From positions 1-46,451 of the forward strand of contig CAWVVV010000008.1 in NCBI GenBank assembly GCA_963933835.1: a stretch of DNA of 46,451 bases, given 5' to 3'. The stretch is from an uncultured Puniceicoccaceae bacterium. GTDB taxonomy: Bacteria > Verrucomicrobiota > Verrucomicrobiia > Opitutales > Oceanipulchritudinaceae. The notes beneath the pieces were generated by a model. That model searched no databases. It was not told where the DNA came from and saw only the letters and a program-made list of their open reading frames with translations. Within the stretch, counting starts at the first letter, position 1. Every line of letters begins with the position of its first letter. Shown in pieces: positions 30,542 through 35,985 of this stretch. The translations under genes were made by a program, and so were the position numbers.

Positions 30542-31827
30542 ATGCACCGAATCACCCCGTTCATATTCTTGATTCCCACACTGCTCATCGCCGATCTCTC
30601 CTCTGAGATAGATAGGTTGTCTCAAGAGGTTGAAGCAAAGGTCATTGAGTGGAGGCACGACATCCACCAATACCCTGAGCTTTCCAACCAGGAGTTTAAA
30701 ACCGCGGCCAAGGTGGCAAAGCATTTAGAGGCACTTGGTTACGAAGTAGAAACAGGTGTGGCAGTGACTGGAGTCGTCGGTGTCCTCAAAGGAGGAAAGC
30801 CCGGCCCGGTCGTTGCATTGAGGGCCGATATGGACGCCTTGCCTGTCACCGAGCGAACAGGTCTGCCCTATGCATCCAAAGTAACAGCCGAATACAACGG
30901 CAAGGAAGTTGGGGTGATGCATGCCTGTGGGCATGATGCGCATGTCGCCATTGCGATGGGTGCAGCCGAGGTGCTGGCGAAGATGAAAGATGAGTTGCCC
31001 GGCACGGTTAAGATGATCTTTCAACCAGCAGAGGAAGGGGCATGGCCTGCTCCCGTCTGGGGCGCGAAACAGATGATTCAGGAAGGTGTGCTTAAGAATC
31101 CGGATGTAGATGCCATCTTTGGTCTGCACGTTAGACCCGGCGTCTTAGGTGGAATTTATGTTAAGCCAGGTCCGATTATGGCGAGTGCCGACTTCATCCG
31201 CATCACGGTTAAGGGTAAACAAACTCATGCCTCGCGGCCGTGGAGTGGCATCGATCCGATCACCGTGTCTTCTCAAATAATCCTTGGACTGCAGACGATC
31301 GCATCGCGCCAGATTGATATATCAGGGGCGCCTTCAGTCATTTCAATCGGAACGATCGAAGGGGGAGATCGGAACAACATCATCCCCGACGAAGTTGTAA
31401 TGACTGGAACGATACGCACCTATGATCCCGTGGTGCGCCAATCCTACCACGATCTAAGCGAACTGCTGAAAAGATTGCTGAAAGTGCAGGAGCCACAGCA
31501 GAGGTCTACATTGGAGTGGACACTGGATACGGCCCAACCGTAAACGATGATAAGCTAACTAATGCGATGACACCTACGCTTCAAAATGTCGTTGGAGAAG
31601 ACTTGGTATTCGTAAGTGAACTAAGCACCGGTGCCGAAGACTTTTCATTCTTCCAAAAAGAAATACCGGGGATGTTCTTCTTTCTAGGAGTCACTCCGCC
31701 CGATCAGCTCAACGCAGATGTTCCTGTGAATCATTCCCCCTTATTCATGGTCGACGACCGAGCTATGCTCAGTGGTGTGCGAGCGATGTCACGCCTAGCG
31801 GTGGATTATATGCTGCAGAACCAGTAA
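30542..31827 (+). pseudogene. Frameshifted M20D-family amidohydrolase with signal peptide
   Basis: HQYPELS, LRADMDALP, MHACGHD and FQPAEEG motifs. At ~31454-31456 the frame shifts to KRTAEKIAESAGATAEV...GAEDFSFF...NHSP (ORF 31516-31827). Confidence 0.85.
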
Positions 31828-31831
31828 GTTG

Positions 31832-33415
<1,584 letters not shown>

Positions 33416-33492
33416 AAATGTGGCTTAAGAGCGACGGAGAATGCTTTGCTCGGCAAGTGTTTCCAGTGAGAGGCGAGCACGTATTAAAAATG

Positions 33493-33638
33493 ACTCACTG
33501 CAGAGGGGACGCTGGAGGTATGGCCATTGGTGGCTCTCGCCGTTTCTTGGCTACGTCACTCATCTGATGATGGCCCCATAGGGCCCTTAACTTCAGGACG
33601 ATGTTAACCCCCATGCCGAAGCGACCCCTGCCTCAAGT
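33493..33638. ncRNA. Candidate structured RNA/DNA element of unknown class
   Basis: Ends are complementary (minus strand ACUUG-AG-GCAG-GGG-U-CGC...GCG-U-CCC-CU-CUGC-AG-UGAGU) and enclose several short hairpins. No ORF-track call covers it. Folded by eye only. Confidence 0.4.
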
Positions 33639-33693
33639 AGGACAGCCCGCTTACCTAATGTTTATACTCAGATTGGTTAGGTCGAGTAATTGA

Positions 33694-34344
33694 CTAAACC
33701 TCAGTTGCGTCTTGATCAGTCGATTCTTGAAATATGCCGAGCCTCCAAACCGCTCGCCACCAAATGTCACGTATTGAAATTCGAAAAATTGCTCTTAAAG
33801 TAGAACTTATTCCTAGTGGAAGACGTTCTGGCTGGGCAATTCCTAGGCCGATGTCTTTCAAGGATTCGATTTCGATAAAGGGTAGGTCGAGTGGTGATTG
33901 CCCTGGGATCCAAGTATAAGTTTGGCCCGATGGGTGAATAGAAGGCGGAACGGCAATGTAACCATCTGTCTTAATATCACCGATGATTTTTCCGTCTCGG
34001 GTCAATTTACCAGTTCGGAGCGAGCGGTCCTTAATGATGAGATGAATGTGGCAACCTCGATAGGTCTGAGTGACAGGGGTATGGTCCGCAATCTCTGGGT
34101 GCTCGTTTCGAAAGACTTGCAACGAATCGTTTTCGTCGAAGTCCAAAATGGCGTATCCGGGTTTGTATAGGGTGATACCTAGATTGCTCCCTTCATAGAT
34201 ACACCGTTCGATTTGATCAGCGCTCAGTTTGCATTTTCGAAAGGAAAGAAGGGCTGAAAGTAAGCCAGCTCGGGTACCTAAGAGCCTACGGATGAGCCAG
34301 AAATCTACCCGCTTCGATCTTTTGACAAGTGGTATGCAATCCAT
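33694..34344 (-). CDS. Stand-alone bifunctional DNA primase/polymerase (Prim-Pol, AEP superfamily) domain protein; frame open upstream to 34479
   Basis: NLGI...ILDFD (DxD), QTYRGCHIHL (catalytic His motif) and GDIKTDGYIAVPPSIHPSGQTYTW. No helicase domain. Confidence 0.82.
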   Translation of the reverse strand: MDCIPLVKRSKRVDFWLIRRLLGTRAGLLSALLSFRKCKLSADQIERCIYEGSNLGITLYKPGYAILDFDENDSLQVFRNEHPEIADHTPVTQTYRGCHIHLIIKDRSLRTGKLTRDGKIIGDIKTDGYIAVPPSIHPSGQTYTWIPGQSPLDLPFIEIESLKDIGLGIAQPERLPLGISSTLRAIFRISIRDIWWRAVWRLGIFQESTDQDATEV

Positions 34345-34592
34345 CTGGGCGTCTTCGTAGAATGACGCCCATTCGTTTGGACCCCATTCCTCTGGAGTTA
34401 TTTCCTCCGGAGTCCTTTCTAGATGAGGCAGTAAGGTCGTTGTATGCGGGTGATTGATATTGGGTAGGCCTTTGGATGTTCAATCTTGGTACGGTGTTTA
34501 GGTATTTCTACCTTATAGAAATATCGGCCAAAGCGAAGCATCCTTAAGAGCCAGGGGATCATGCTCTATTGATAGAGCCATGATGAAGGCAT

Positions 34593-34630
34593 AAAAAAAC
34601 CGGAGCGACTCTATAGAAGAGTCACTCCGG
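34593..34630 (-). terminator. Rho-independent terminator of the suf operon
   Basis: Minus strand CCGGAGTGACTCT-tctat-AGAGTCGCTCCGG followed by TTTTTTT, ~30 bp after the sufD stop. Confidence 0.88.
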
Positions 34631-34662
34631 CTGAAAGTTGAGACACCGTCTATCAAATGTAA

Positions 34663-35985
34663 CTACCGGAATTTCTGCTGCACGAGCTCACGGATGTAGT
34701 CACGCAGGTCTTCAATTTTGAACTTCTCAATGATTTCTTCGAAGAATCCGAAAACGAGGAGCTCTTCGGCTTTCTTGCGCGGGATGCCGCGGGCGAGGAA
34801 ATAGAAGATATTTGAATCATCGATCTGGCCCGAGGTGGCTCCATGGGAGCACTTAACATCGTTGGCATTGATTTCGAGACCGGGGAGCGAATTTGCTTCA
34901 ACCTTTTCACTGAGAAGAAGGTTGTTGTTCGTTTGGTAGGCGTCGGTTTGCTGGGCCTCTTCTTCGACAATGATTAGGCCACTGAAGATTGTTTTGGCGG
35001 AATCTTGGAGCACGTTCTTGTAGAGCAGATTGGAACGGCTATTGGGCGCGATGTGCGTCTGAAGAGTGCGCTGATCGAAGAATTGATCTTTGGTCGGAAC
35101 GTTCAGCGAGTAGAGGTTTACGTCTGACCCCGATCCAAAGATTTCCCCGTGGACTTCTTGGCGGGCCTGTTTTGAGCCAATGTTGATCAGGATGCCACGG
35201 CTCTCAACGTCACGCTCGGCGTTGTGCGTATTGAGCTGAAAACTGAGCGTGTTTGTATTCCAATTTTGGATAATGTCGTGCCGTGGCTTGGCTCCATTTT
35301 CGGCGAAAACGTGGGCGTTTGCGATGACAAGATTCTCCGTCTCAGGCGAAGCACTTTCTTGGAATTCAACGAGGGTAGCCTTGGCGTTCTCGTCACAGAT
35401 GAAGTGGGTGTGGGGAAAGATAGCGCTTCCGCTTGCTTGACTCCAATTCGCAACGACAAATGGGCGATCAATTTCCAGCCCCTTCGGAATATAGACGAAG
35501 AGCCCATTGCGCAGGAGAGCGAGGTGCAGGGCTTCAAACTTTTCTGAGCCGAGCCGTGGAGACTGGCGCATGAAGTATTTTTTCACCAGTGCTTCATGCT
35601 GATTGAGCGCATCGAAAAGGGTCGTGAAAACGACGCCTTGTTTCTCTAGCTCAGGATCGAGGTAGCGCGGAGCAGCAAGGTTGTCGTCAATGAAAACGAA
35701 GCGTCCAGCGACATTCTTCAAACGATTGGACTTCTCTACGATCTCTTCGTTTTCAACTGCCGCGAAAGGACTAGGCTCAAAGCGATCAAGGTCTGCGAGA
35801 CTCTTGAGGTTCGAGAATCGCCAGTTTTTGCTCGTGCGGTTTGGCGTGGGGAGCTGCTTGTAGCGCTCCCATGCTTCGGCCTGCATGGTTTGGAACCACT
35901 CAGGCAGGAGTTCGTTCTGGGCTTGGCGCATAAGAAAGGCTTCGTCGAAATTAGACGGTGCGTCGGAAATGAGTGTATTTGACAT
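34663..35985 (-). CDS. sufD: Fe-S cluster assembly protein SufD
   Basis: WRFSNL, QQTDAYQTNNNLLLS, PGLEINANDVKCSHGAT and FYFLARGI motifs. Confidence 0.93.
   Translation of the reverse strand: MSNTLISDAPSNFDEAFLMRQAQNELLPEWFQTMQAEAWERYKQLPTPNRTSKNWRFSNLKSLADLDRFEPSPFAAVENEEIVEKSNRLKNVAGRFVFIDDNLAAPRYLDPELEKQGVVFTTLFDALNQHEALVKKYFMRQSPRLGSEKFEALHLALLRNGLFVYIPKGLEIDRPFVVANWSQASGSAIFPHTHFICDENAKATLVEFQESASPETENLVIANAHVFAENGAKPRHDIIQNWNTNTLSFQLNTHNAERDVESRGILINIGSKQARQEVHGEIFGSGSDVNLYSLNVPTKDQFFDQRTLQTHIAPNSRSNLLYKNVLQDSAKTIFSGLIIVEEEAQQTDAYQTNNNLLLSEKVEANSLPGLEINANDVKCSHGATSGQIDDSNIFYFLARGIPRKKAEELLVFGFFEEIIEKFKIEDLRDYIRELVQQKFR

Follow-up and report, generated by a model that had tools for sequence, protein, structure and literature searches.

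A stand-alone Prim-Pol gene on a foreign 1.1-kb islet of a Puniceicoccaceae bacterium, and a possible co-option of its lineage to glycan cassettes

Introduction

What does a single Prim-Pol gene do on a bacterial chromosome, between two host genes and with no helicase at its side? The question is raised by a locus in an uncultured Puniceicoccaceae bacterium (assembly GCA_963933835.1, contig CAWVVV010000008.1, positions 1 to 46,451; this whole stretch of 46,451 nucleotides is referred to as the window). A survey of the superfamily reports that almost every AEP in the PrimPol-PV1 supergroup is carried on a mobile element (PMC5862659). The original prediction, made from the window alone, saw here a polymerase with an adjacent structured RNA, or else the remnant of a mobile element. 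Here we describe the islet, its protein and the relatives of that protein, and ask which reading they favour.

Results

The islet is a foreign insertion

The features of the locus are listed in Table 1. As predicted, the islet lies between the suf terminator and the FAD oxidoreductase gene; the flanking genes encode SufD and an FAD-dependent protein, and the terminator is real. The islet is also, as had been noticed, richer in AT than its surroundings (GC 0.480 against 0.537 ± 0.028), a GC as low being found in 2.5% of 3518 genome windows. Compared with 801 reference frames, the codon adaptation of the Prim-Pol frame falls in the lowest 1%, and its GC3 is 0.44 against 0.61. The reported lack of a tRNA att site holds for the whole window, in which no tRNA was found.

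Table 1. Features of the islet and its flanks (positions are those of the window).
Feature	Positions	Strand	Remarks
FAD-dependent oxidoreductase gene	31832..33415	-	host flank
Direct repeat, left copy	33424..33432	+	9 bp; candidate target-site duplication
Inverted end, left	33438..33450	+	imperfect, 11/13 match to right end; 5 nt inside direct repeat
'Structured element' of the original prediction	33493..33638	-	non-coding part of insertion; GC 0.575
Possible H-type pseudoknot	33624..33687	-	sub-threshold Pistol ribozyme match; treated as chance
Prim-Pol reading frame (solo AEP)	33694..34479	-	261 codons stop-to-stop
C-terminal predicted helix pair	33742..33810	-	residues 224-246; hydrophobic/basic face; in place of PriCT/helicase
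Motif III, GDIK	33970..33981	-	D = ORF904 D171; mostly His in the GT-linked branch
Motif II, RGCH	34048..34059	-	H = ORF904 H145
Motif I, DFD	34135..34143	-	ORF904 D111/E113
Degenerate in-frame 15-nt tandem repeats	34368..34419	-	TPEEI/TPEEW/GPNEW; upstream of first ATG
Inverted end, right	34532..34544	+	imperfect; overlaps right direct repeat by 2 nt
Direct repeat, right copy	34543..34551	+	9 bp
Intrinsic terminator of suf operon	34598..34632	-	host, outside insertion; z -8.8
sufD	34663..35985	-	host flank

The two copies of the direct repeat are spaced 1,119 bp apart, and excision of that length would bring the FAD-gene start to a plausible distance of 63 nt from the suf terminator. By itself the repeat is unremarkable, being matched in 76/3000 shuffles and 365/9641 genome control windows. 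The direct repeat together with the inverted ends was found in none of the 3000 shuffles and none of the 9641 control windows, by criteria chosen after the pattern was seen; looser criteria gave 35/3000 shuffles. The geometry of the ends is imperfect, with an offset on the left and an overlap on the right (Table 1). A search of the genome for further copies of the islet ends returned a single 15/17 match, inside an unrelated gene.

The islet is not an assembly artefact, since contigs from another study span its two junctions without any difference, and identical pieces are present in the contigs of two more studies; a chimera of assembly is thereby ruled out. No empty site, with sufD adjoining the FAD gene, was found in 40 relatives or in four sequencing runs, and none of the 40 relatives either matches the islet or has both flanks together. 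At the sufD loci of relatives a different gene, presumably SufT/PaaD-like, follows in 9 of 12 cases, and in the host that gene is located on another contig. Members of the Prim-Pol family were absent from 36 other genomes of the host's family and from 300 other genomes of its order. Taken together, the odd codon usage, the direct repeat with inverted ends and the absence of the family across the order mean that the 1.1-kb islet is a foreign insertion, and in this the alternative offered by the original prediction, a mobile or foreign islet, is supported. Searches of the host genome (1.94 Mb, 97% complete) found neither PriCT_1 nor a second Prim-Pol, and PADLOC matched no anti-phage family among six proteins tested.

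Other irregularities were observed in and around the window. An amidohydrolase-like gene, as we presume it to be, is apparently split at 30542-31827 (+) into frames of 333 aa and 103 aa which overlap at 31516-31543, suggesting a frameshift or an assembly error. A bulged hairpin at 34556-34586, just past the suf terminator and outside the insertion, is not beyond chance (z -1.3). In two relatives (L005 and L007) a short extra gene, which we take to be NYN-like, separates sufB from sufD; within the host's family, insertions at the suf operon and at its 3′ end seem to vary.

The islet encodes a Prim-Pol domain with a short tail

The reading frame matches PF09250 with an E-value of 7e-10 (40 bits, curated cut-off 22.8), and the only family matched when the family profile was run against PDB sequences was pRN1 ORF904. 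The claim of a single Prim-Pol domain with three AEP motifs stands: DFD, RGCH and GDIK align with LDFE, GIH and IIDLQ of ORF904, whose catalytic residues are reported to be D111, E113, H145 and D171 (PMC2965215). ORF904 is also the best match of the predicted model of the protein (pLDDT 83), by VIA (Z 12.9, rmsd 3.0 over 168 residues) and by Foldseek (E 9e-9). Every residue that is invariant in the family is preserved, and no stop interrupts the frame. Judged by sequence and predicted model, the gene is real and encodes a pRN1-ORF904-like Prim-Pol domain with intact catalytic motifs; it belongs to the Prim-Pol domain family, and neither to the pRN1-type replicases nor to the retron-like modules or the Pistol ribozymes.

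ORF904 (PF09250; PDB 3m1m, 1rni) shares the fold and motifs I-III with the window protein, but it has a helix-bundle domain and a helicase, both of which the window protein lacks, ending instead in a helical tail. Residues 40-255 of ORF904 are reported to extend primers and to be unable to prime without the helix bundle (PMC2965215). In a further difference from ORF904, the window gene is chromosomal and was not found on the plasmids searched. Pfam matched no PriCT or helix-bundle domain in the window protein, which ends 72 residues past its YxW motif, and there is no helicase fused or adjacent to it, the flanks being SufD and the FAD protein. About 10 extra residues precede motif I relative to typical long forms (62-67 against 50-59), a feature which is not unique.

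The start of the gene is irregular; this, like the direct repeat with inverted ends, is absent from the original prediction. No ATG, GTG or TTG start is found before residue 46, where the first ATG (34344) falls inside the conserved domain and past a helix (residues 34-43) that is conserved and modelled with confidence. Because of this, and because in-frame 15-nt repeats lie before it, the true start is either a near-cognate codon, for which there are candidates, or lost. A 65-codon TTG-started frame at 34286-34483 (-), with no Pfam match, overlaps the 5′ end of the Prim-Pol in the neighbouring frame and is possibly the original start, frameshifted. A database variant on a 14.7-kb contig (P0003) is identical to the window protein through residue 213 and has another C-terminus; this marks either a chimeric sequence or a second context for the insertion.

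The closest relatives are solo proteins

The nine best non-self matches among 1.84 billion representatives are all 212-277 aa in length, and Pfam finds Prim-Pol alone in each of them. That homologues might be only the N-terminal halves of helicase fusions is therefore refuted for the nine closest, all of which are solo. The relative P0004 shares 52% identity with the window protein and has the same end point and the same tail. The nine end 63-79 residues past the last motif, in a tail that is mostly basic, aromatic-rich and helical. Such a tail resembles the membrane-docking tails of glycosyltransferases; a literature search for this likeness found no paper.

Replicases of phages, plasmids and ICEs that join Prim-Pol, PriCT and helicase (D5, AAA_25/RepA and DUF927 types) have the catalytic domain in common with the window protein, which differs in having no PriCT or helicase fused or adjacent, as well as no PriCT_1 in its genome. 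Two such helicase fusions, P0013 and P0017, are close to the family and share the C-terminal motif of the solo proteins, as does P0019 (819 aa), and P0017 nests among the solo proteins. Longer proteins score at most 120 bits against the family profile, compared with 180-232 bits for five loci of the glycosyltransferase (GT)-linked branch outside the profile.

The family is rare. Four family queries were run against phage and plasmid records, and none was matched over 80% of its length; viral scans (80 loci with flanks each) contained, among the matches listed, only generic Prim-Pols of at most 120 bits. A metagenome scan returned, among at least 599 matched stretches, a contig of the same species (L127) and generic loci, and word-indexed protein searches gave almost no matches. 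Random samples of 301 genomes each yielded no family member in a cyanobacterial order, and in Planctomycetota and the Desulfuromonas phylum one in the sample's centre genome only. Genome G775 was rejected as a carrier, its candidate being a prophage-like split replicase, and no NCBIfam family matches the Prim-Pols. The unpublished genome G342 is used for none of the claims made here.

A related branch is linked to glycosyltransferases

A motif scan of GTDB gave 61 loci, of which 19 were solo family members: 14 from Mesorhizobium, the others from Desulfuromonas, Pirellulales and three other Pseudomonadota. With 14/19 from Mesorhizobium, these loci are not independent. A family-level genome search added five (n = 24). 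The context described below is that of one related solo branch, and does not extend to the four nearest relatives (P0004-P0007) or to the middle group (P0008-P0012 and others). A GT2 glycosyltransferase gene lies directly downstream on the same strand in 20/24 loci, from three phyla but mostly Mesorhizobium. The GT2 is usually fused to GT4, or GT4 is next, and a GT32/Anp1 fusion then follows in 16; the partners in these cassettes are GT2-GT4, GT32/Anp1 and, once, GT10. The remaining loci comprise two in a second glycan-type set, one orphan and one cut by a contig end. Three helicase queries matched none of the 24. Within GT-linked loci the Prim-Pol stop often overlaps or almost touches the start of the next gene. 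Among 181 genomes of one family, the solo gene occurs in 7 and full-length GT32/Anp1 in 10, and the two are adjacent in 4; in one genome (G1392) all three genes of the GT cassette are present and the Prim-Pol is missing. Adjacency in 4 only, and a cassette complete without it, argue that the Prim-Pol is an accessory of the GT cassette.

Sequence conservation within the GT branch is strong (68% column identity, many invariant positions). The branch keeps the DxD and the His; the third catalytic aspartate is replaced, mostly by His. Its model has an ORF904-like fold, and a wide fold search placed AEPs alone on top.

Several of these neighbourhoods deserve a description of their own. At L320, L314, L359 and L512 a cassette of GT2-GT4 and a GT32(DxD)/Anp1 fusion stands downstream of the Prim-Pol, at differing chromosomal sites in three phyla. 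Since Anp1 is a domain of yeast mannan polymerase, the product is possibly a mannan-like bacterial glycan. A second glycan-type cluster surrounds the solo Prim-Pol at L509:6493-11387 and L510:9781-12259. It contains three genes with no Pfam match or sub-threshold ones (weakly GT2-like), which are candidates for new glycosyltransferase families, and at L509 a strongly matched polysaccharide pyruvyl transferase. The orphan at L332:7458-8171 has no glycosyltransferases beside it and, unlike its GT-linked sisters, keeps the motif-III aspartate. The window protein, like that of L332, keeps this residue. Cognate GT partners were searched for in the host genome and not found; a GT2 is neither adjacent nor present in it. 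The only partner-like match there is an isolated gene (G000:C4:208239-209204) that weakly resembles a GT10 fucosyltransferase.

Two trees bear on how closely the window gene belongs to this branch. In FastTree (63 rows) the window protein, the GT branch and further solo proteins form one group with a support of 87. IQ-TREE places the window protein in a five-member solo clade (99/97) and leaves that clade unattached to the GT branch (split 63/92, bootstrap not settled). A tree constrained to unite all solo rows with P0017 passes the test (p-AU 0.335), which allows monophyly but does not show it. For both the window protein and P0162 the best structural cluster in the ESM Atlas is a solo, mostly bacterial one of 214 aa, which we infer to be the GT branch. 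Findings on the GT-linked branch therefore apply moderately to the window gene.

An RNA module downstream is not supported

The original prediction described an end-paired multi-hairpin element of ~146 nt downstream of the gene. It folds at chance (z -0.57, 51/200 shuffles as good), as does a longer stretch on the coding strand (z +0.76); the other strand gives z -1.56 and DNA parameters -0.3/-0.8, while the suf terminator, used as a positive control, stands far below (Table 1). The several palindromes noted upstream of the gene likewise occur at chance, 4 being seen against 3.95 expected. No Rfam family passes its threshold at the element. The best nearby match, the Pistol ribozyme (RF02679), scores 17 bits against a cut-off of 34.5 with its P2 stem unpaired, and a pseudoknot of this kind appears in 73/1000 shuffles; the match is treated as chance. 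6S RNA was also rejected as the identity of the element, as the 6S RNA was located elsewhere.

Comparative searches gave the same picture. Blastn of four non-coding pieces of the islet against 514 loci (3.49 Mb) found no homologue, a viral pattern scan for the element gave no match, the FAD-gene leader showed no similarity across 7 relatives, and the sequence upstream of 12 family loci had nothing in common except a neighbouring gene. In GT-linked relatives the next gene begins no more than about 55 nt from the Prim-Pol stop or overlaps it, so there is no room for an RNA module, which is unsupported there. Absence of the element beside homologues, which the original prediction had named as refuting it, holds at every family locus with flanks, a set that excludes the four nearest relatives. 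The downstream DNA is best read as passenger sequence rather than a guide RNA.

Discussion

We regard it as an evenly balanced prospect that this solo AEP lineage was co-opted as an accessory nucleotidyl- or phospho-transferase of glycan cassettes, the window copy being stranded. Co-option of a Prim-Pol, which the original prediction brought up, is plausible; its direction would be towards glycosyltransferase operons (20/24 loci) and not towards RNA. A bolder form, which we hold tentatively, is that an undescribed lineage, the window gene included, has turned from copying DNA to modifying glycans by nucleotidyl or phospho transfer, which would be the first case of an AEP fold at work on sugars. 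As part of it, and with the same reserve, the lineage may travel between phyla in small GT cassettes, or alone as here. Under the co-option reading a 1.1-kb cassette would have been acquired horizontally with one member of a rare chromosomal stand-alone Prim-Pol lineage. That lineage would have left replication, PriCT and helicase being gone and a short helical tail standing in their place. In the GT-linked branch the loci show that the cassette can include the Prim-Pol or lack it, and that translational coupling is frequent where it is included. The two-metal AEP site would have stopped copying a template and would draw on a nucleotide donor to transfer a nucleotidyl or phospho group, the acceptor presumably being a sugar or glycan made by the neighbouring glycosyltransferases; alternatively, the AEP may make a nucleotide product that those enzymes need. 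The helical tail could dock the protein on a membrane or a partner. The window gene would have moved alone into a host without cognate partners, where it may be idle or act on host glycans. Against this co-option reading stand the motif-III Asp kept by the window protein, the lack of partner genes in the host, the GT cassette that occurs without a Prim-Pol, the C-terminal motif shared with helicase fusions and the weak attachment of the window clade to the GT branch.

A polymerase fold acting on glycans has a reported precedent in LicD/Mnn4 (PMC2794190). LicD, Fukutin and Mnn4 are described as polymerase-type folds in glycan clusters that carry a phospho-substituent from a nucleotide donor to glycans, Mnn4 acting on yeast mannan-type glycans, and the GT-linked cassette has an Anp1 domain. 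However, theirs is the Pol-beta nucleotidyltransferase fold and that of the window protein is the AEP fold, so the analogy is functional only. Closer in fold are the co-opted AEPs CAPP (CRISPR), AgaPP (pAgo), LigD PolDom/Prim-PolC and the IS-excision enhancer, which also work outside replication in a host-side module. Their substrate is DNA and their neighbours are Cas, pAgo-helicase, Ku/ligase or IS elements, whereas here glycosyltransferases recur, and the structural scores of such AEPs against the window model are lower (Z 7-8). Titles and abstract openings of the open literature searched hold no link between AEPs and glycosyltransferases, and the survey of AEPs (PMC5862659) does not use the string 'glycos' in its main text.

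The strongest competitor, unlikely in our judgement but to be taken seriously, is that the gene is a remnant of a mobile-element replicase whose branch lost PriCT and helicase independently of the GT branch, leaving an idle passenger with a decaying start codon. The insertion hallmarks (the 9-bp repeat and inverted ends), the foreign composition, the lack of a canonical start ahead of the conserved first helix and the C-terminal motif shared with helicase-fused kin are all what a remnant would show, and the reported confinement of nearly all PrimPol-PV1 supergroup AEPs to mobile elements (PMC5862659) agrees with it. It keeps some probability because the tree link of the window branch to the GT-linked branch is weak. 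A decaying passenger fits poorly, however, with intact family-invariant residues in a frame open for 261 codons, and the same end and tail in P0004 at 52% identity speak for selection on the solo form; contigs of three further studies also contain the islet unchanged, within a genome of 1.94 Mb. More improbable is a solo polymerase for DNA repair or end joining, carried by a cassette of the non-autonomous, transposon-like kind and performing primer extension, terminal transfer or microhomology joining after the manner of AgaPP, LigD PolDom or the IS-excision enhancer AEP. The three canonical acids and the His are kept in the window protein, direct and inverted repeats mark the islet ends, ORF904 40-255 alone is reported to extend primers (PMC2965215), and AgaPP is reported to have terminal transferase and end-joining activity (PMC11724360). 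Yet AgaPP is described as pairing with a downstream PriCT-helicase (PMC11724360), which is absent here; LigD/Ku, IS and pAgo are not recurring neighbours of family loci, a single IS110 at L508 apart; and the GT linkage is left unexplained.

The reading first proposed for this locus, an AEP with an adjacent template or guide RNA in a retron-like layout, now seems very improbable. Weak end-to-end pairing, a possible pseudoknot right after the stop and the position of the 146-nt element within the insertion speak for it. Against these stand coding-strand folding of z -0.57 to +0.76, the frequency of such pseudoknots in shuffled sequence, the lack of an Rfam family or of a homologue in 514 loci, the absence of downstream room in GT-linked relatives and of a common upstream sequence at 12 loci. 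Retrons resemble the islet only in that proposed layout; they have a reverse transcriptase and an ncRNA, and the islet has neither a reverse transcriptase nor a conserved ncRNA. The RNA reading is best abandoned.

The AEP co-options described so far have DNA or RNA as their substrate. If the co-option to glycan cassettes is true, a branch that has neither helicase nor PriCT, in which the third metal ligand is rewired and which is coupled to glycosyltransferases in three phyla, would extend the AEP superfamily to sugar chemistry, in parallel to LicD/Fukutin, which did so for the Pol-beta fold. It would also point to surface-glycan decoration in Mesorhizobium, which is cultivable and genetically tractable. 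Moreover, the label 'bifunctional DNA primase/polymerase' on short chromosomal genes need not mean a prophage.
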